A stretch of DNA of 64,000 nt from IMG/VR virus record IMGVR_UViG_2925908680_000001; one strand, given 5' to 3'. Below, one piece after another: positions 30,521 to 39,343 of this stretch. Positions within the stretch are counted from its first letter, which is position 1. Every line of letters starts with the position of its first letter. The notes under the pieces were generated by a model, which saw nothing but the letters and a program-made list of their open reading frames with translations, had not been told where the DNA came from and did not search any database. The position numbers and the translations under genes were made by a program. This stretch comes from a virus. Lineage: Duplodnaviria; Heunggongvirae; Uroviricota; Caudoviricetes.

Positions 30521-31426
30521 ATGAGATCAGTCGCTTTCAAAAATATCTTCATCTATCGTCTTTCACGCGAAGTTAGCTGGGATACTGCAGCGGTAAACGC
30601 TGCTCTTGGCAAATTTGTGTTTACCCCATGCGGTTCTCAGGACATGGTTAAAGCTGGTTGGACGCCTGTTCTTGGCAACAACCTCACACATGAATACCAG
30701 GGTTTTCTTCTGATACAGCATAAACGAGAGGAAAAAATCCTACCTTCTCAAGTGCTCAAAGAAGAGTTACAGAAAAAAATCCTGACACTTGAAGAAGAGC
30801 AAGACAGAAAGCTGAAGAAGACCGAAAAAGATTCGCTGAAGGATGAAGTGCTTCACTCTCTTCTTCCTCGTGCTTTCACGAGAAAATCACTCGCCAAAAT
30901 CCTGATCGACCGCAGCAACCATCTGGTATTCGTTGAGGCAAGCAGCGCCAAAAAGGCAGAGGACCAGCTGGCTTTATTGCGAAAATCGCTCGGCAGCCTG
31001 CCTGTCATTCCATTCACACCACGCGAACCGCTGGAAATTACAATGACCGAGTGGTTTAAAAACGGCTTCCCTGCCGGATTTACAGCAGGTGAAGACGCCA
31101 CATTAAAGGGTCTGCTCGATAATGGTGGTGCCGTTCGCTGCAACAAAGTTGATCTACAGTCCGACGAGATTATGTCTCACATTGAGGCGGGGAAAGTAGC
31201 TACGACCGTTGCAATTAACTGGATGGAACGCGCGTCGTTCAGAGTCAACGATGATATGAGTATCAAAGCCCTGACATTCTGTGATGATCTCTATGACCAG
31301 AACGACGATATCGACCGGGAGGATGTAGCACAACGATTTGATGCTGATTTCGTGCTCTTTACGGGCGAATTATCTGCACTGTTTAACGCGCTGGTGGAGG
31401 CCATTGGCGGTGAAGCAGAACGATAA
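30521..31426 (+). CDS. rdgC: recombination-associated protein RdgC homolog
   Basis: Collinear with E. coli RdgC (FKNxxxYRLSRE, FTPCGSQDM, KEEKILPSxV, KKTEKDSLKDEVLHSLLPRAF, LALLRKSLGSLPV). Confidence 0.85.
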   Translation: MRSVAFKNIFIYRLSREVSWDTAAVNAALGKFVFTPCGSQDMVKAGWTPVLGNNLTHEYQGFLLIQHKREEKILPSQVLKEELQKKILTLEEEQDRKLKKTEKDSLKDEVLHSLLPRAFTRKSLAKILIDRSNHLVFVEASSAKKAEDQLALLRKSLGSLPVIPFTPREPLEITMTEWFKNGFPAGFTAGEDATLKGLLDNGGAVRCNKVDLQSDEIMSHIEAGKVATTVAINWMERASFRVNDDMSIKALTFCDDLYDQNDDIDREDVAQRFDADFVLFTGELSALFNALVEAIGGEAER

Positions 31427-32090
31427 TAACCGACAGCTTGTTGTGAGTCTTTGTGATTTTACGGGGGCAATGGTTGCCCCCTGGCTGGAATACGGTGTCG
31501 ATGCCGCTATCGTCGATCCACAGCACTTATCGACCAGTGACGAGCGGATGCAATCAGGTGCCGTTCTGACGCGTATTAGTGCGATCATCGATAGCGATGA
31601 AGTATACGCTTTTCTCCGTAAGAATTTGCAGCGCATCGTGTTTCTGGCCGGGTTCCCACCGTGTACTGACCTGGCTGTTTCCGGCGCGCGCTGGTTTTCG
31701 GACAAGGCTAATAAAGATCCGGTTTTCCAGTTCAAAGCAATGCAGGTTGTCTGGCAGTGTTATGACATTGCAAAGATGATCGGTTGTCCGTACATGATTG
31801 AAAATCCGGTCAGCAAAATATCGACATTCTGGCGTAAGCCAGATCACATCTTTCACCCTTACTTCTTCACTGCATATTGTCAGGAAGATAACTACACCAA
31901 AAAAACATGCCTCTGGAGCGGCCAGGGCTTTGTCATGCCTGATGCCCTAATGGACGAATCATTAGGCAAGCCAGATAACAGAATCCATGCCGCGCCACCA
32001 GGGCCTGACAGGGCTAATTTTCGAAGTGCTACTCCACATGGATTCGCAAAGGCAGTTTTCGAAGCGAATAAGGGGGTGCTCTATGAGTAA
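31410..32090 (+). CDS. short C5-cytosine methyltransferase-like protein
   Basis: PPC-containing motif (FLAGFPPCTDLAVSG) and ENV motif (YMIENPV); start uncertain (GTG at 31410 or a downstream start). Confidence 0.5.
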   Translation: MKQNDNNRQLVVSLCDFTGAMVAPWLEYGVDAAIVDPQHLSTSDERMQSGAVLTRISAIIDSDEVYAFLRKNLQRIVFLAGFPPCTDLAVSGARWFSDKANKDPVFQFKAMQVVWQCYDIAKMIGCPYMIENPVSKISTFWRKPDHIFHPYFFTAYCQEDNYTKKTCLWSGQGFVMPDALMDESLGKPDNRIHAAPPGPDRANFRSATPHGFAKAVFEANKGVLYE

Positions 32091-32988
32091 ATCTATAGCA
32101 AGCATAGCCATAGAAAAACAGGATACGATGGCTGAAATTAGCTATATGCGCACCATTCGGACTCAGGATGAATATGAGCGTCCGATATTCAAATGGGTAG
32201 GTGGTAAATTCTCAGAATTGCCTACAGTGCTTGAGCATCTACCACACGGTAAGCGGTTAATAGAACCATTCGTTGGTGGCGGTTCCGTATTTACGAATGC
32301 AGGATTTCGCCACAACCTGCTTAATGATATTAACGGTGACCTGATTAACTTCTATCAGACATTGCAGCGAGAAGGACATTCGCTTGTCACGCTGTCATAT
32401 AGTTTTTTCCAAAATTACAACAACGCTGACGCTTACCTCGAAGTGCGTGAGGCATTTAACAGAGGAAAGTATGACCAGCTACATCATGCTGCCGCCTTTT
32501 TGTACCTTAATCGGCACTGTTTTAATGGCGTAACGCGGTACAACCAAAATGGCGAGTTCAACGTGGGGTATGGCAAATACAAAGCGCCCTACTTCCCACA
32601 TGCAGAGATGGAGGCATTTTTGGCTGATGACGTACTCAAAAACACGTCCTTTGTATCAGGTGACTTTGCTGGCGTCATCGAGGCGGCTGGTGAAGGCGAT
32701 GTGATTTTTTGCGATCCGCCGTATGAACCGCTGCCGGATACAGAAGGGTTTACCAGTTATTCAGGAAATAGCTTCCGTTTCGACGAACAGAAACGGCTGG
32801 TATCTCTATTGGTGGAAGCCCACCAGCGCGGCGCTAAGGTAGTGATAACAAATAGTGGTGCGCCAAACATCCGTGAACTATATGAAGGAAACGGGTTTAA
32901 AGTACATCATATGGCAGCCAGACGGTCGGTGTCCTGCAAGGCGTCAACACGTGTAGTTGCTAACGATATAATTGCAATAATGAAGTAA
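32083..32988 (+). CDS. dam: DNA adenine methyltransferase (Dam family)
   Basis: KWVGGK, FVGGGSV and DPPY motifs; start ATG overlaps the upstream stop. Confidence 0.85.
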   Translation: MSKSIASIAIEKQDTMAEISYMRTIRTQDEYERPIFKWVGGKFSELPTVLEHLPHGKRLIEPFVGGGSVFTNAGFRHNLLNDINGDLINFYQTLQREGHSLVTLSYSFFQNYNNADAYLEVREAFNRGKYDQLHHAAAFLYLNRHCFNGVTRYNQNGEFNVGYGKYKAPYFPHAEMEAFLADDVLKNTSFVSGDFAGVIEAAGEGDVIFCDPPYEPLPDTEGFTSYSGNSFRFDEQKRLVSLLVEAHQRGAKVVITNSGAPNIRELYEGNGFKVHHMAARRSVSCKASTRVVANDIIAIMK

Positions 32989-33020
32989 AAAACGCCGCAG
33001 TAGCGGCGTTTACTTTTTTA
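32989..33020. terminator. bidirectional rho-independent terminator
   Basis: aacgccgc-agta-gcggcgtt hairpin with T/A runs on both sides, between convergent dam and glnS. Confidence 0.55.
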
Positions 33021-33036
33021 TGTGGCGAAATACCTA

Positions 33037-34698
33037 TTAACCTAACTTCGCCCAGGTATCACGCAGCCCAACGGTGCGGTTAAATACCGGTTTTTCCGCC
33101 GTAGAATGGCGGCTGTCGAGGCAGAAATAACCTTCACGCTCAAACTGGAATGCTTTACCCGCTACCGCTTCTTTCAGCGACGGTTCAGCAAAACCCTGTT
33201 TGATCACCAGCGATTCCGGGTTAATCACCGACAGGAAATCATCCGCAGCACCTGGGTTCGGCACGCTGAACAGACGATCGTACAGGCGGATTTCAACCGG
33301 CAGCGCATGTGCCGCGCTCACCCAGTGAATAACGCCTTTCACTTTACGACCATCTGCCGGATCTTTGCTTAAGGTGTCGGCGTCATAAGTACAGAAGATG
33401 GTGGTGATATTGCCTTCGGCATCTTTCTCCACGCGTTCAGCCTTAATGACGTAAGCATTACGCAGACGCACTTCTTTACCCAGCACCAGACGTTTGTACT
33501 GCTTGTTAGCTTCTTCTCGGAAATCGGCGCGGTCGATCCAAATCTCACCGCTAAACGGCACCTGACGGTTACCCATTTCCGGTTTGTTTGGATGGTTCGG
33601 CATGGTGACCATTTCGCCTTCGCCCTGATAGTTTTCGATGACCAGTTTCACCGGATCGATAACCGCCATTGCGCGCGGCGCATTTTCGTTGAGATCTTCA
33701 CGGATGCAGGATTCCAGCGACGCCATCTCAATGGTGTTGTCCTGCTTGGTCACGCCGATGCGTTTGCAGAACTCACGAATAGAAGCCGCAGTGTAACCAC
33801 GACGACGCAGACCGGAAATGGTCGGCATACGCGGGTCATCCCAGCCTTCAACGTGCTTGTCGGTCACCAGCAGGTTCAGCTTACGCTTGGACATCACAGT
33901 GTATTCCAGATTCAGGCGCGAGAATTCGTACTGGCGCGGGTGAACAGGAATGGTGATGTTGTCCAGCACCCAGTCGTAAAGGCGACGGTTGTCCTGGAAC
34001 TCAAGCGTACACAGAGAGTGCGTAATACCTTCCAGCGCATCGCTGATGCAGTGGGTGAAGTCGTACATCGGGTAGATGCACCACTTGTTGCCAGTCTGGT
34101 GGTGTTCAGCAAACTTAATGCGATACAGCACCGGATCGCGCATCACGATAAACGGCGAAGCCATGTCGATTTTCGCACGCAGGCAGGCTTTACCTTCTTC
34201 AAAACCACCGGCACGCATTTTTTCGAACAGCGCCAGGTTCTCTTCAACGCTGCGATCGCGGTACGGGCTGTTTTTACCCGGCTGCGTCAGGGTGCCGCGG
34301 TATTCGCGGATCTGTTCCGGCGTCAGTTCGTCAACATACGCCAGGCCTTTGTTGATCAGTTCAACAGCATAGGCGTGGAGCTGATCAAAATAATCGGAGG
34401 AGTAACGGATGTTGCCAGACCAGTGAAAACCTAACCATTCAACGTCGTTTTTAATCGACTCGACGTACTCGATATCTTCTTTTACCGGGTTAGTGTCGTC
34501 GAAACGCAGGTTGCACTGGCCTTTATAGTCCTGGGCGATCCCGAAGTTCAGGCAGATAGATTTCGCATGACCAATATGCAGATAGCCATTCGGTTCCGGC
34601 GGGAAACGGGTATGTACTGTGGTGTGCTTACCACTGGCCAGATCTTCATCGATGATCTGACGAATAAAGTTAGTCGGGCGGGCTTCTGCCTCACTCAT
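33037..34698 (-). CDS. glnS: glutaminyl-tRNA synthetase
   Basis: 553-aa translation matches E. coli GlnS from memory with only a handful of substitutions (HIGH and VMSKR motifs present). Confidence 0.95.
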
Positions 34699-34966
34699 TG
34701 TGGATTCCTCAAAGCGTAAACAACGTATAACAGCGTATGATCTTATAAGCCGAATAGGCTGACAACCACTAGTTGATTAGAAATTGCTTTCTATCGTTAT
34801 TTCAATAATGAGCTTTTTCATTAAGCCCACTTTTGCGCATAAGTAAATTAATGACAAATGGTACACAATTGGAACCAAAAAGGATGTAAAGGTGCACCAA
34901 ATTAGTGGTGTATTGGTGCACCTTTGGTTCAAGACTTTTTAAGTTCTAAAACCAACCTGAAAGACT

Positions 34967-35254
34967 TTATTTTGCTTCCTCAGACTCCGCTAACATGAGG
35001 ATAGCATGGCGGATCATATTCAATTTGCTACGATTATGCTTTTTACTTAACGCATCAAGTACCTGGTACTCGTATTCATTGAAACCAACACGAATAGATT
35101 TAAAATCACGTGGAGCGTCCTTATCGAGCACTTTGTTGTCTTCTGGTTGCTCACCCGGCACCAAATCAGCCTTACTTGCAAAATCCTCAATTCGGCGTTC
35201 AAGATCGGGGTCTTTTACTTCGGGGGCTTTTACCGATTTACGAGGCTTAATCAC
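34967..35254 (-). CDS. small partition DNA-binding protein (ParG/ParB-like)
   Basis: 95-aa ORF immediately downstream of, and overlapping, a ParA-type ATPase gene. Confidence 0.5.
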   Translation of the reverse strand: MIKPRKSVKAPEVKDPDLERRIEDFASKADLVPGEQPEDNKVLDKDAPRDFKSIRVGFNEYEYQVLDALSKKHNRSKLNMIRHAILMLAESEEAK

Positions 35255-35888
35255 TTAATAACTCCTTAACCAACATCTGGATTTCACCTTTAGCTTTCCC
35301 GTTGTCCATCTCAACAACGCCCTTCCCTTCAGCCATGCAATCGCGGTAAACCTTACGATCACGAATGATGGTTTTCAGCAACTTCAGTTGCGGATATTCA
35401 GCCAGGTACTCTTTGGCCTCATTGGTTTCATTCACAACCGGATTGGATGGGGCCATTGTTAAGACTGCGAACGCCTTAATGCTAGGATTAGGCATCAGGT
35501 CCAAAGCCTCTTCAAACACTTCAACAAAGTGTGCCAGCGTGTCTAAATCTGGTTGAGATGGTCTGAATGGGACCAACACAATATCTGCAGCGGTTATGCC
35601 TGTACGCATCTCTTTGCTATCGCGCCCGGCTGTATCAACAACTACAAATTCATAACGCTTATCCAGATCGAGAAGTGTTTCTCGAATATTACCAAACTTC
35701 TGGACACAATGAATTACAGGAGAAACCTCTGCCGTGTTACGGTCAGCGGCCCAGCGGGCAGCTGTTCCTTGCTTGTCTGCATCTAGTAACACTACATCCT
35801 TATTTTCGCGGGCAAGCTCCGCACAGATGTTTACGCTTGTGGTTGATTTTCCACAGCCACCTTTTTGGCTGACTACCAATATAATCAT
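35247..35888 (-). CDS. parA: ParA/ParF-type partition ATPase
   Basis: Deviant Walker A (KGGCGKST) and ParA family layout. Confidence 0.85.
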   Translation of the reverse strand: MIILVVSQKGGCGKSTTSVNICAELARENKDVVLLDADKQGTAARWAADRNTAEVSPVIHCVQKFGNIRETLLDLDKRYEFVVVDTAGRDSKEMRTGITAADIVLVPFRPSQPDLDTLAHFVEVFEEALDLMPNPSIKAFAVLTMAPSNPVVNETNEAKEYLAEYPQLKLLKTIIRDRKVYRDCMAEGKGVVEMDNGKAKGEIQMLVKELLSD

Positions 35889-35889
35889 A

Positions 35890-36170
35890 TCCGTTCCTCG
35901 GTGTTATTTTGGTATCAAACTGGTTCCAAACAGAAGCCTTATTGATGCGGTTTTGGCTCTATAGTGGAGTCATTATGCTTTGCAAAAGTATAACACTAAT
36001 CATTCTAAATTTGCCCTCTGTTGCATCCTGTTTAACACGAAATCAGCACTAAATTGGAACCAGATACAAAGCAGCACCATAACAACACCGTTTTGGTACT
36101 AAAAGAGCACCAAACTAGAATCATAACGGTATAAAAAAGGCTGCAAATTGCAGCCTTTGAAGATGTAGAT
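35890..36170. repeat. centromere-like repeat region (TTGGTAC / TGGTTCCAAA / GGTGCACC motifs)
   Basis: Multiple direct and inverted short repeats upstream of parA; related motifs also at about 34860-34930. Confidence 0.35.
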
Positions 36171-36173
36171 TGG

Positions 36174-36545
36174 TTAATCAGGGAGTGAGTTTGCCAAATT
36201 CTGAGCAGAGCGGCTTTTCGGAACGCCTGGTTTTTTTACATCCTCTGAGACAGAGGTTTTTCCTTCAGTAGGTTCCCGAACTTCATGCGAAATTTCAAGA
36301 AACGAAACCAGCATTTTTCTGATCACTTCAGAGCTATTATCACCGGATAAAAGCGATGCCAACATGGGAGGTAATCTGCTATCAACCTCGCCAAGAGCGA
36401 TACCTGCAAGCATCGCAGTGCGCACCATATCATTGCGATCACTTAATGGATGGGCCTCAATTTTTGCCACAGCATATTGCTCACTGGCGTAAGCGTTAAG
36501 ATCTGAACGAAGATAAAACATTATTTTTCGACGTTCTTTAGACAT
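36174..36545 (-). CDS. ParR/StbB-like partition adaptor
   Basis: Small ORF immediately downstream of the actin-like ATPase gene. Confidence 0.5.
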   Translation of the reverse strand: MSKERRKIMFYLRSDLNAYASEQYAVAKIEAHPLSDRNDMVRTAMLAGIALGEVDSRLPPMLASLLSGDNSSEVIRKMLVSFLEISHEVREPTEGKTSVSEDVKKPGVPKSRSAQNLANSLPD

Positions 36546-36555
36546 GGCAACCTCA

Positions 36556-37515
36556 TCAACCGATAGATTTTAGACCATATACAAGAGCAAGTTGTGGATC
36601 ATCAGCAACGAAAAACCTATCGTCACGAATGTTTACCTGCTCACGGATAGCATCAGCAACAAGCGGCGCGCCGCCACCAATTACCATAACATGTGTGTAT
36701 CCTTTGAAATCACTGATCACATCCAGTACGCGTGTACGGAGTCGCTCTATGCTTGACGAAATGGCTTTCTTAACATCATCAATAGCAGACGGATCGTTAA
36801 TATTGTCGGTCAGATAATCCTCATCATCTCGATTAATGATTAATTGATCGACGTTATAATTAGAGGTTTCGGTATTAGCTTTTGCAAGTGCCTGTCTGAC
36901 CTCTTTAGTTACCAGCGAAACGCCGAGATTAGAATCGCCAAATACGCGAGAAACGGCGGTCATTTGCCCGGCAACCATCGACACATCCAGAGTAGTCCCG
37001 CCAAGATCAACAATAAGCACAGAATGCGCTGGCACAAGGCTGTCGCACAGACCGATCCCTGCGGGTATTGACTCCGGGCGCACAGTCACTTTTTTGATAG
37101 TAAAAACCTGACCTTTGTTAAGGGTGACTGGTCGCATCAGGCTGGCCTTTTTCCGCTCAATATTTTTCATGTTGTATTGTGCGTCGTCGTCATAAAACTC
37201 TGCCAGTGGCAACGTGACTACTATTTCCACTTCTTGAGGCTCAATGCCACTTGTAAGCAGGGCATGATGAACAGCAAGCACATTAAGCGGGCTGTATTGC
37301 CATTCAACGTTATTCGTTGGCAGAACATCCGGCGAGATCAAGTCATATGAATATTTTTCGTCATCAATGATGTAGTTAAACGTTTTTCCTGCGCCAAATG
37401 TGGCGGACCATCCACGTTTAAAACTGTTCGGGCAGATATGGGTTCGAGTTTCCCCGTCTTGTTCCCACAGCATTTTGATATTGGTAGAACCATCGTCGAT
37501 AAAAATGCGCATCAT
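36556..37515 (-). CDS. parM: ParM/StbA actin-like segregation ATPase
   Basis: Actin-fold motifs (IFIDDGSTNIK, VLIVDLGGTTLD, VMVIGGGA); start taken at the internal MMRIF. Confidence 0.85.
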   Translation of the reverse strand: MMRIFIDDGSTNIKMLWEQDGETRTHICPNSFKRGWSATFGAGKTFNYIIDDEKYSYDLISPDVLPTNNVEWQYSPLNVLAVHHALLTSGIEPQEVEIVVTLPLAEFYDDDAQYNMKNIERKKASLMRPVTLNKGQVFTIKKVTVRPESIPAGIGLCDSLVPAHSVLIVDLGGTTLDVSMVAGQMTAVSRVFGDSNLGVSLVTKEVRQALAKANTETSNYNVDQLIINRDDEDYLTDNINDPSAIDDVKKAISSSIERLRTRVLDVISDFKGYTHVMVIGGGAPLVADAIREQVNIRDDRFFVADDPQLALVYGLKSIG

Positions 37516-37610
37516 ATTGCTCCACTTCTGAGACACATTTGAGAAAGAATTGAATCTTATATGAGAAAACAAAATAAAACCAGAAGTTGAGAGAGCAAAA
37601 AGCACCAGAT

Positions 37611-37666
37611 TTGAGACAAACCAGAGACAAACTAGAGACACACTAGAGACAAGTATGAGAAACAAG
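37611..37666. repeat. parC-like iterated repeats
   Basis: Four to five tandem copies of about 11 bp (ccagagacaaa, ctagagacaca, ctagagacaag) upstream of parM. Confidence 0.5.
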
Positions 37667-37723
37667 AAATCTTAAGAGTGAAAATCACAAAGTGGAGAAG
37701 ATTTAAGAAAAAGGAGGTGTTAG

Positions 37724-38008
37724 ATGAGTGCAATAGCGACCTGTGACACAGTTTGTTCCGGTCATGGAGGATTCCCTCCGCGACCTGTAGCAGAAACAGT
37801 TTCCTGGTTTACCGTAAATGGAAAGCCAGTTGTTGTAGATGGTGCCATGTTTCCCAGTCACACTGACGGTAACAGTGCACATCCAGGGGCAGCTGTATCG
37901 ACGCGAGTATGGTTTTCGATAGGTGGAAAGGGAGTTGTCTGTGTAGGCGATCCGCTTTCTTGTGGTTCTGTTATCGCCAACGGCGAGGATATTTTTCAGG
38001 TTGCATAA
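37724..38008 (+). CDS. PAAR-like domain protein, 94 aa
   Basis: Gly/Cys-rich small protein with PAAR-like spacing (CSGHGG, GDPLSCGSV). Confidence 0.45.
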   Translation: MSAIATCDTVCSGHGGFPPRPVAETVSWFTVNGKPVVVDGAMFPSHTDGNSAHPGAAVSTRVWFSIGGKGVVCVGDPLSCGSVIANGEDIFQVA

Positions 38009-38814
38009 TGCTTGATTCAATAGGTGAAGTTAAAGCCTTCAAAATTCTGTCAGATGCCGGTATCTCTACACCAGAATCTATAACCATAAGCCGGGCAGCT
38101 TCTGTAAAAGCCTCATCGCTCGCCAGCGCCATACAGGGAATAGTTCACGCCGATAAAACCTATCCTGATTCTGTTTCGGCCTGGACTACTCAATTGCTTG
38201 GCTTTTCTGAACAGCTCAATGAGGCCAGCAAAGCGTCTTCATCACTGGCTGATTCTCTTTCCCCATACACCAAGCCATCAGAGCTGTTACAGATGAAGAT
38301 TGGCTGGGAATGCTACGCAAAAGGTAACGAGCTGACCCCCATACCTGCTTTCGCCCTTGTTGAGGGAATGGGGAATGTTTCCATTCCGCAATCTCTAACG
38401 GACGCATTGACGGCGCTAAAACTTGATGCTCTGAAAACCGCCATGAACGCCATTAACGCAAAAATTGAAGCTGCCGGAAGTGCTGGTGGTGGTGAAAGCA
38501 ATGGTGGACAGGGTGGTGCTGGGGGCGCTCAGGCTCCAGTCATTACTCAGGATGAAATTGATGCTTTACGGGAAGCAGTGACAGCCGCCGAAGTTTTACT
38601 CTCCGAAATTAACTCAGCAAGTGAGGGTGTCGTAGCCCTTACAGGTCGCATTAAAACGTCAACCACTCAGGCAACCAAAGGTTTAGAGAACGCTGTCGCC
38701 ATCACGTTAACTGGTTCTCTACTGGATGATGCAGTAATGAGTCCGGCAATCAGTTTAATCATGCCACAAGGCGTTATCGATGCGCTCCAAAAGAACACCA
38801 AAAAGGAACCATAG
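38008..38814 (+). CDS. hypothetical Ala/Ser/Gly-rich protein
   Basis: ORF from the ATG at 38008 (MLDSIGEV); low-complexity G/S linker. Confidence 0.45.
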   Translation: MLDSIGEVKAFKILSDAGISTPESITISRAASVKASSLASAIQGIVHADKTYPDSVSAWTTQLLGFSEQLNEASKASSSLADSLSPYTKPSELLQMKIGWECYAKGNELTPIPAFALVEGMGNVSIPQSLTDALTALKLDALKTAMNAINAKIEAAGSAGGGESNGGQGGAGGAQAPVITQDEIDALREAVTAAEVLLSEINSASEGVVALTGRIKTSTTQATKGLENAVAITLTGSLLDDAVMSPAISLIMPQGVIDALQKNTKKEP

Positions 38815-38869
38815 AAACACCACTTAGGCACACAAAAGGATGTAAATTGGTACATGTTTAACACCAAAA

Positions 38870-39343
38870 ATGAACCTGGAGAGGATGGTTTTGAAAAAGA
38901 TAATTTTGATTGTAAATGCGCTTTTAGCCATTTCTGGAATTTACCGAACAACGACGGCAGTTATCGAACACATCAGGTATGTCCGATCGCTTGAAGACTC
39001 AAAATCACAACTGGAAAGCACGAACAACACGCTTTCTACCGCATTACAGTTAAGTGAGAACGCTCGCTCAGCCATGCTGACCGAAAACGAAAGAATTAAA
39101 GCACTGGAAAAGGAGTACCAGCGCAAAACAGCAGAACTGAATGCCAACCTAATCAAACAACGAGAGGAAAGCCAGAATGAAATCACTCGCCTTGAAAATA
39201 CGTTGCGCCGTGCTGGGATTAACGATGTGCGTGTACCTGATGACGTTATCAGGATGCAGCGGGAACGGGCAAAAGCCATCAACCAGCGTGCCAGTGAAAA
39301 TTACCGTAGAAGCCACCAGCAAGCCGCAGGCAAATCTGATTGA
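38870..39343 (+). CDS. i-spanin (Rz-like)
   Basis: N-terminal transmembrane segment then coiled-coil periplasmic domain. Confidence 0.6.
   Translation: MNLERMVLKKIILIVNALLAISGIYRTTTAVIEHIRYVRSLEDSKSQLESTNNTLSTALQLSENARSAMLTENERIKALEKEYQRKTAELNANLIKQREESQNEITRLENTLRRAGINDVRVPDDVIRMQRERAKAINQRASENYRRSHQQAAGKSD

Follow-up and report, generated by a model that had tools for sequence, protein, structure and literature searches.

Plasmids that combine a type Ib and a type II partition (par) locus have been known since pB171 (2001), whose double locus reportedly joins par1, of type II, to par2, of type Ib, as set out by Ebersbach & Gerdes. A 2026 survey counts 971 PLSDB plasmids in which a type-I ribbon–helix–helix (RHH; type Ib) system accompanies a type-II system (PMC13245405). 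Here, we analyse such a pair in a stretch of 64,000 nucleotides from the Caudoviricetes record IMGVR_UViG_2925908680_000001, which we call the window. Positions 34860–37700 hold four minus-strand genes that form two cassettes, arranged head-to-tail and facing the same direction. By homology and gene order, these are predicted to be two intact plasmid-segregation cassettes, a type II ParM/ParR pair and a type Ib ParA whose partner is a small DNA-binding protein; repeat arrays accompany each of them. Very probably, the locus serves a phage D6-like phage-plasmid as its native region for plasmid maintenance and comprises two independent and intact partition cassettes. The placing of a type Ib system beside a type II system follows from hidden Markov models (HMMs), structure matches, the predicted fold, the order of the genes and comparisons between genomes.

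Comparison with described partition systems

The closest described relative is phage D6 (MF356679 / NC_050154), which has the same gene order and orientation as the window. ParA and a 95-residue protein encoded after it are 100% identical between the two, ParM is 93% identical and the glutaminyl-tRNA synthetase GlnS 99%. ParR reaches only 56–62% identity, the value varying with the alignment, and neither the sequence nor the layout of the iterons is the same. In D6 as in the window, the par locus lies between dmt-like methylase genes and a PAAR (upfC-like) gene. The four genes already carry names in the D6 GenBank record, where orf58 is of StbA type, orf59 is of StbB type, orf60 has a 'possible ParA partitioning function', orf61 is hypothetical and orf62 is GlnS. 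One paper gives the partition system of a D6-like plasmid as 'cop, parA, stbB and parM' (PMC6799933), and the D6 entry of another gives only 'ParA-Ib-type ATPase; RHH domain-containing protein' (PMC8026635). The D6 replication initiator is isolated and lies away from the par locus. Two toxin–antitoxin systems, phd-doc and higBA, have been reported for elements of the D6 type.

The window matches phage D6 (89% over the locus) and non-mobilisable plasmids of ∼90 kb from E. coli, Salmonella and Shigella, and about 100 D6-like plasmids conserve the tandem locus with both cassettes intact. From these matches, we assign the window to a phage D6-like element of the P1g2 group and not to P1. The initial annotation had set the two systems against the single ParAB–parS system of P1, in which ParA/ParB/parS (type Ia) fills the same role in a related phage-plasmid; that type is marked by a large ParA with an N-terminal helix–turn–helix, a helix–turn–helix ParB and a parS beside repA. 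This contrast was misplaced, since the tandem locus is native to D6 and is its only annotated partition equipment. The D6 annotation contains no other par genes and no P1-type parAB; the window itself was not searched with the P1 ParA or ParB sequences. The tandem locus is therefore not a surprising redundancy on top of P1 parABS.

For the comparison with a pB171-type locus, we used pWS1933D_83, in which a type II ParM/ParR pair also lies beside a type Ib ParA and a small centromere-binding protein. ParM, ParR and ParA are 42, 31 and 42.6% identical to those of the window, respectively, and the small ParB/centromere-binding proteins are not detectably similar. The arrangement also differs. In the pB171-type locus, the cassettes are divergent and share a central parC1, whereas in the window they are tandem and co-directional with a terminator between them, so the cross-talk through a shared parC1 cannot apply as such. 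Arrays lie on both sides of the type Ib operon in both loci, but they consist of TCACA/TCATA-type hexamers in the pB171-type locus and of G(T/C)ACCAA heptamers in the window. Outside the D6 group, each module is found singly: parMR alone in Providencia, Proteus and Moellerella plasmids, and the parA module alone in Aeromonas, Arsenophonus and Serratia plasmids. A search of the window for paralogues of the four par proteins returned none.

The type II cassette

The type II cassette is composed of parM (36556–37515, minus strand), which encodes an actin-like segregation ATPase of 319 residues, and parR/stbB (36174–36545, minus strand), which encodes a predicted centromere-binding adaptor of 123 residues; the gap between the parM stop codon and parR is 10 nt. 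The initial annotation had proposed two different partition systems side by side, had named HMM classification of both ATPases as a way to examine this, and had held that the absence of conserved catalytic motifs from either ATPase would speak against it. HMMs, structure matches and gene order bear out this placing of all four genes, and the motifs are intact in ParM and ParA alike. Pfam assigns ParM to PF06406 (StbA_N; E value 5e-69) and PF21523 (ParM C-terminal domain; 9e-56). The R1 ParM structure (1MWK) aligns with it from end to end with an E value of 5e-110 and 54% identity. Conservation relative to R1 ParM extends to each of the nucleotide-binding motifs, FIDDGSTNIK, PESIPAG, DLGGTTLD and IGGGA, and the full-length alignment covers the phosphate-1, phosphate-2, catalytic and adenosine motifs. 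A 369-residue open reading frame with a TTG start, which had been listed for ParM, is an artefact; R1 ParM is matched only from the ATG at 37515/37512 onwards. ParR matches PF10784 (Plasmid_stab_B) in Pfam at 2.9e-13, and its residues 3–79 match the pB171 ParR structure (2JD3) at 3.9e-7. Compared with parMRC (stbAB) of R1/R100, ParR belongs to the same Pfam family at ∼25% identity.

The repeats upstream of parM form two blocks on the minus strand. The distal block (37608–37662) contains five direct 11-bp iterons in exact 11-bp phasing, which read TTTCTCATACT, TGTCTCTAGTG, TGTCTCTAGTT, TGTCTCTGGTT and TGTCTCAAATC on the coding strand and share a T[GT]TCTC core. A 39-bp spacer (37569–37607), the presumed site of the parMR promoter, separates it from the proximal block (37525–37568) of four 11-bp units, TTTCTCATATA, the degenerate AGATTCAATTC, TTTCTCAAATG and TGTCTCAGAAG, after which come a Shine–Dalgarno GGAG and the ATG. 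The AGAGACA-type repeats that the initial annotation saw upstream of parM correspond to TGTCTC on the coding strand, and they resolve into these five plus four iterons. Tandem Repeats Finder independently reports an 11-bp period at 37613–37652 (3.6 copies, 89% matches, score 66). A stretch of 150 bp contains eight copies of GAGAMA, compared with 1.2 per kb in the window, and no other cluster in the 64 kb comes close to this density; the GAGAMA/GAGACA patterns, like the TGGTNC pattern used below, were picked after the regions had been inspected.

The parC of R1 consists of two sets of five 11-bp iterons around a 39-bp region with the promoter (PMC2241845). Like the blocks in the window, it lies upstream of parM and is divided by a spacer of 39 bp. 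The predicted parC-like geometry of the window (5 + 39 bp + 4) is essentially the same as that of R1 parC. However, the R1 iterons are A/C-rich, of AAACCC type and unrelated to TGTCTC, and they number 5 + 5 rather than 5 + 4. By analogy with R1, ParR dimers would bind both 11-bp iteron blocks cooperatively and repress the promoter in the 39-bp spacer. The ParR–parC complex would then cap ParM–ATP filaments, and filament growth would drive sister plasmids apart.

Downstream of parR, a predicted intrinsic terminator (36130–36158, minus strand) has a 10-bp stem, a 3-nt loop and a U-tract. Its stem-loop at 36136–36158 has a folding free energy (ΔG) of −14.5 kcal/mol with a z score of −4.3 and is followed by UUUUUUAUAC. 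The hairpin after parR is kept in D6 and in the plasmid pEC361_3. The locus is thus predicted to form two transcription units, with the cassettes separated at this terminator. In Rfam, the region 33000–39000 gave a single chance match, below threshold, to a miRNA.

The type Ib ATPase and its small partner

The parA gene (35247–35888, minus strand) encodes a small partition ATPase of 213 residues with a deviant Walker A motif. It matches the AAA_31/CbiA/MipZ group in Pfam and NCBIfam ParA_partition (NF041546) over its full length with an E value of 7e-48 and 162.8 bits. The best PDB matches are the type Ib ParF/ParA structures of TP228 (4DZZ and 5U1G; 1.5e-18, 29% identity). The Walker A sequence KGGCGKST, at residues 9–16, aligns with KGGSGKTT of ParF, and DADKQG and VVVDTAG align with DTDPQ and IVDGAG, respectively. 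Since the Walker A motif begins at residue 9, the N-terminal domain of type Ia is absent; no N-terminal DNA-binding or helix–turn–helix domain is present, and the length fits the type Ib range of ∼200–220 residues.

The partner gene (34967–35254, minus strand), equivalent to D6 orf61, encodes a candidate centromere-binding protein of 95 residues; it has a GTG start and overlaps the parA stop by 8 nt. In TP228 ParF/ParG and pESBL ParAB, a small deviant-Walker-A ATPase is likewise followed by a partner of ∼90–100 residues. The 95-residue protein has no Pfam, NCBIfam or PDB sequence match of its own, and comparison with the pB171-type and pESBL-type (IncK2/Z) ParB proteins gave nothing significant. 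A word-indexed search retrieved D6-like copies only, whereas a full HMMER search of 1.84 billion representatives retrieved 101 small remote relatives. Of the 90 relatives that were aligned, 30 match NikA-like RHH in Pfam and 21 match RHH_1/CopG, and others match RHH_7, TraY and DUF6290. An AlphaFold (AF2) model built on a shallow alignment of nine sequences was poor, with a predicted local distance difference test score (pLDDT) of 57; that built on the 90-sequence alignment reached a pLDDT of 90.6, with helices at 16–29, 60–73 and 77–91. The RHH fold was resolved only by the deep HMMER search and the larger alignment. The protein has a basic N-terminal tail (MIKPRK), the helix 16–29 and a C-terminal RHH domain at about residues 52–91. 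The strand before helix 60–73 is not drawn in the monomer model because it needs the dimer partner.

The top PDB matches to this model in Foldseek are CopA, CopG, Arc and TacA, with target template-modelling scores of 0.7–0.8 and root-mean-square deviations of 1.2–1.8 Å over ∼40–43 columns. The initial annotation had called the partner ParG-like. ParG of TP228 combines an RHH domain with a flexible N-terminal tail, and the predicted architecture of the 95-residue protein, a basic tail plus an RHH domain, agrees with this label. The likeness does not extend to sequence: ParG (1P94) is not a PDB sequence match of the partner, it ranks ninth in the fold search with a probability of 0.47 and a poor full-length superposition, and it is not in the 25 most-matched Pfam families among the relatives of the partner. 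According to the model, the protein is thus ParG-like in architecture and stands outside the ParG sequence family.

Regarding the pairing with ParA, we scanned one genome per species with an 11-sequence alignment of the partner family, whose N-terminus shows a conserved basic M-[IV]-K-x-R (R5 is invariant in A3). The scan gave 22 loci, and in all but one (21/22) the gene immediately upstream, in the same orientation, encodes a ParA homologue, with 57–70% identity in full-length matches. The loci belong to Gammaproteobacteria and one betaproteobacterium and include Sodalis, Serratia, Rahnella, Chimaeribacter, Kangiella, Kushneria, Hahella, Methylococcales, Nitrotoga and a Marinobacter plasmid, among others. 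No ParM, ParR or GlnS is found within 5 kb of these 22 loci. As judged from gene context, the 95-residue protein is a genuine ParA partner.

Motif arrays on both sides of the ParA operon

The TTGGTAC/GGTGCACC-type motifs that the initial annotation placed around the ParA operon are arranged in two arrays. The upstream array (35889–36129, minus strand) is a candidate operator and centromere analogous to parC1. Its sites, read on the plus strand, are TTGGTAT at 35909, TGGTTCCA at 35921, ACACTAA at 35993, GCACTAA at 36046, TGGAACCA at 36055, GCACCAT at 36074, TTGGTAC at 36093, GTACTAA at 36096 and GCACCAA at 36107. The downstream array (34858–34931) is a candidate analogue of parC2, with ATGGTAC at 34858, TTGGAACCAA at 34869–34878, GCACCAA at 34894, TTGGTGC at 34913 and TTGGTTC at 34924. 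Within it, AAAGGTGCACCAA/TTGGTGCACCTTT form a perfect 13-bp inverted repeat that is predicted to give a stable hairpin in the transcript.

TGGTNC is most densely clustered in the 64 kb at 34859–34925 and 36057–36107, two places that flank the ParA operon. Since this pattern was chosen after looking, the motif was derived independently from other loci. Around 16 non-D6 ParA–RHH operons, GTACCAA/TTGGTAC is 42-fold enriched (33 occurrences in 4.9 kb of flank versus 18 in the remaining 120 kb), enrichment is likewise seen for the variants GTACTAA and CACTAAA, and similar arrays lie upstream of most of the operons. The pattern G[TC]AC[CT]AA, defined on these unrelated loci only, was then applied to the window. 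It matches four times in 35889–36130, where 0.11 is expected (Poisson P = 5e-6), and this region holds its densest 120-bp stretch in the window; in 34850–34966 it matches twice against 0.05 expected (P = 1.5e-3). It has no match in parC. The enrichment on both sides of the operon agrees with the initial placing of the motifs. These ParA–RHH operons look like an uncharacterised but widespread type Ib partition family with a common, putative centromere motif.

The flanks of loci L009–L028, from other Gammaproteobacteria, carry long regular arrays of G(T/C)ACCAA type with a spacing of ∼11 bp; Hahella (L019), Nitrotoga (L022) and Bacterioplanes (L024) are examples. Amid these arrays there is often a sigma-70-like promoter.

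The motifs could also be transcriptional elements and nothing more, the upstream array serving as an autoregulation operator and the downstream one as a terminator hairpin. RHH proteins are typically repressors, the downstream 13-bp inverted repeat lies in a region with a ΔG of −27.7 kcal/mol (z = −4.7), after which comes a U-rich stretch, and several homologous loci also have a hairpin amid their downstream motifs. Nevertheless, we regard this explanation as unlikely. Copies of the motif lie outside the downstream hairpin, at 34858, 34869–34878 and 34924, and the downstream stretch of pEC361_3, which is non-homologous to that of the window, has the same motif type. In characterised type Ib systems, moreover, the same repeats act as operator and centromere and arrays lie on both sides, as documented for pB171 par2, pSM19035 and pESBL (PMC7602700). 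The pESBL operon resembles that of the window in this layout, although its centromere motif consists of GATAACAA octamers, unlike the heptamers found here.

With the arrays read as operator and centromere, the type Ib mechanism can be drawn by analogy with pB171 par2, TP228 ParFG and pESBL. The RHH protein would bind the G(T/C)ACCAA-type heptamer arrays on both sides: those upstream of parA, as operator and centromere, and those that follow its own gene. With its basic N-terminal tail, the protein may stimulate the ATPase of nucleoid-bound ParA dimers, and plasmid copies would thereby be spaced along the nucleoid.

Recombination, selection and neighbouring genes

To analyse the history of the locus, we compared the window with D6 and with pEC361_3. 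Nucleotide identity to D6 is 99–100% over ∼34400–35899, 94–100% over the rest of glnS, 50–80% over 35900–37800 and 95–99% beyond. Identity to pEC361_3 is 83–100% (mostly >94%) over 35000–37800, and the two are unrelated to the left of the RHH stop codon; relatives of the pEC361_3 type are without glnS. By these alignments, the window is recombinant: its left half is of D6 type, and its parMRC allele is the rarer one of pEC361_3 type. The break points lie near 35900 and 37800, and the exchanged module comprises the parMRC cassette and the parA upstream region. The pEC361_3-type parMRC allele occurs in only seven PLSDB records, none with glnS, and no PLSDB record among those listed combines the parMRC allele of the window with glnS. 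The break between the glnS-carrying (D6-type) and glnS-lacking (pEC361_3-type) elements is located exactly at the end of the RHH gene (34966/34967).

The glnS gene (33037–34698, minus strand) lies outside both par systems and encodes a glutaminyl-tRNA synthetase (TIGR00440, 1067 bits). It is 96–97% identical to chromosomal E. coli glnS at the nucleotide level, and homology to the chromosome is limited to 33041–∼34786; the downstream motif array at 34858–34931 therefore belongs to the plasmid backbone. Chromosomal homology of these tight bounds points to a recent capture, which would have brought its own promoter region, beside the par module. The homology ends ∼88 bp upstream of the start codon, and in 5,426 complete E. 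coli genomes the gene is plasmid-borne at 81 places. The initial annotation had taken the redundant segregation machinery next to the captured glnS to suggest a recombinant maintenance island. This description is fair with respect to the glnS capture and to a parMRC allele differing from that of D6, but functional redundancy itself is hypothetical.

The genes of the two cassettes differ in their rates of change. The ratios of nonsynonymous to synonymous substitution (dN/dS) are 0.01–0.02 for parM, 0.03 for parA and 0.05–0.08 for the RHH gene, values which indicate strong purifying selection on both motors and the RHH protein. For parR, dN/dS is 0.72 versus pEC361_3 (window 36174–36545 against L003 7210–7575), and dN is ∼0.3 versus D6. 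ParR and the iterons differ between alleles, whereas ParM is 93–99.7% identical. By these measures, ParR and parC are hypervariable among D6-like elements, and their divergence alongside a conserved ParM fits a diversification of centromere specificity. The changes in ParR are concentrated in its N-terminal DNA-binding part and in the linker, and the iterons are rearranged as well.

These rates also bear on the possibility that one cassette alone partitions the plasmid while the other is a passenger, a host-range back-up, or an element with a role in regulation or incompatibility. One system can dominate in other dual-par plasmids, as in SCP1, where parABS1 alone is important under laboratory conditions (PMC13245405); the modules of the window differ in history, each being found singly elsewhere, and ParR and parC evolve fast, as the parR ratio and the ParR identity to D6 illustrate. 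We nonetheless consider it quite improbable, in view of the purifying selection on both motors and the RHH protein (dN/dS 0.01–0.08) and of the intact state of both cassettes in about 100 plasmids. Three records, NZ_CP031917.1, CP042632.1 and NZ_MK356557.1 (L032, L033 and L034), have a frameshifted parA and were considered as knock-outs. They were rejected, as glnS is frameshifted in these records too and, in the third, parR and parM as well; the parA frameshifts look like products of error-rich assemblies and not like real pseudogenes.

Two further observations concern the borders of the locus. On the right, a gene encoding a PAAR-domain protein (P1 upfC-like; 37724–38008, plus strand) is divergent from parM and begins ∼60 bp past the distal iterons. 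In pEC361_3, no PAAR coding sequence is listed at the matching position, where identity is 71–81%. On the other side, two overlapping methyltransferase-like reading frames (31338–32988) lie beside glnS. These correspond to D6 orf64, a cytosine methylase, and orf63, which is Dam-like and matches only the C-terminal half of P1 dmt.

Discussion

The view of the locus as the native maintenance region of a D6-like phage-plasmid, with two independent and intact partition cassettes, builds on the observed gene identities, the conserved ATPase motifs, the predicted RHH fold, the repeat architecture, the family-wide ParA-side motif and the purifying selection that acts on ParM and ParA. The mechanistic steps expected from homology and architecture are binding, repression, the capture of filaments, stimulation of the ATPase and stabilisation. 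Several points weigh against this view. First, the 95-residue partner resembles in sequence none of the characterised type Ib centromere-binding proteins with which it was compared, and the 162.8 bits of ParA fall below the curated NCBIfam ParA_partition cut-off of 180 bits. Second, the strict ParA-side motif counts in the window are small (four and two), and the downstream inverted repeat could simply be the operon terminator. Third, a consensus scan gave no confident sigma-70 promoter in the parC spacer, where there is only a weak TTGCTC-16-TATTTT; the scan also gave no clear sigma-70 promoter for parA. Lastly, the searchable literature, which did not cover the original D6 genome paper, yielded no experimental evidence for the locus or for D6.

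That the repeats reflect chance or low complexity and that the genes are paired by coincidence is extremely improbable: the motifs are short and the initial TGGTNC and GAGACA patterns were picked once the regions had been seen, but this explanation is already contradicted by the independent detection of the 11-bp array by Tandem Repeats Finder, by the recurrence of the ParA/partner pairing in 21 of the 22 loci, and by the ParA-side motif, which was rederived from 16 unrelated loci with 42-fold enrichment before being tested on the window.

The contrast between the two cassettes suggests, tentatively, a two-speed design. The ParA–RHH module would be near-invariant, while fast-evolving parR–parC alleles, with a conserved parM situated between parR and parC, would set partition-incompatibility groups among D6-like phage-plasmids that circulate together and be swapped as modules by recombination. 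The window, with its D6-type left half and rare pEC361_3-type parMRC allele, would be one product of such a swap. We consider this possible but rather doubtful; if it were true, it would need explaining why a shared, identical ParA–RHH module does not by itself cause incompatibility.

In summary, the locus is real but ordinary, being by comparison the normal and already annotated maintenance region of D6-like plasmid prophages, here in a mosaic member. To the double loci known from pB171 onwards and the genes named in D6, our analysis adds a map of candidate centromeres, the R1-like parC layout, the G(T/C)ACCAA motif common to uncharacterised ParA–RHH operons and the bounds of the glnS capture. 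As E. coli, Salmonella and Shigella commonly carry D6-like phage-plasmids, this map would aid the design of stability and incompatibility experiments and of curing tools.

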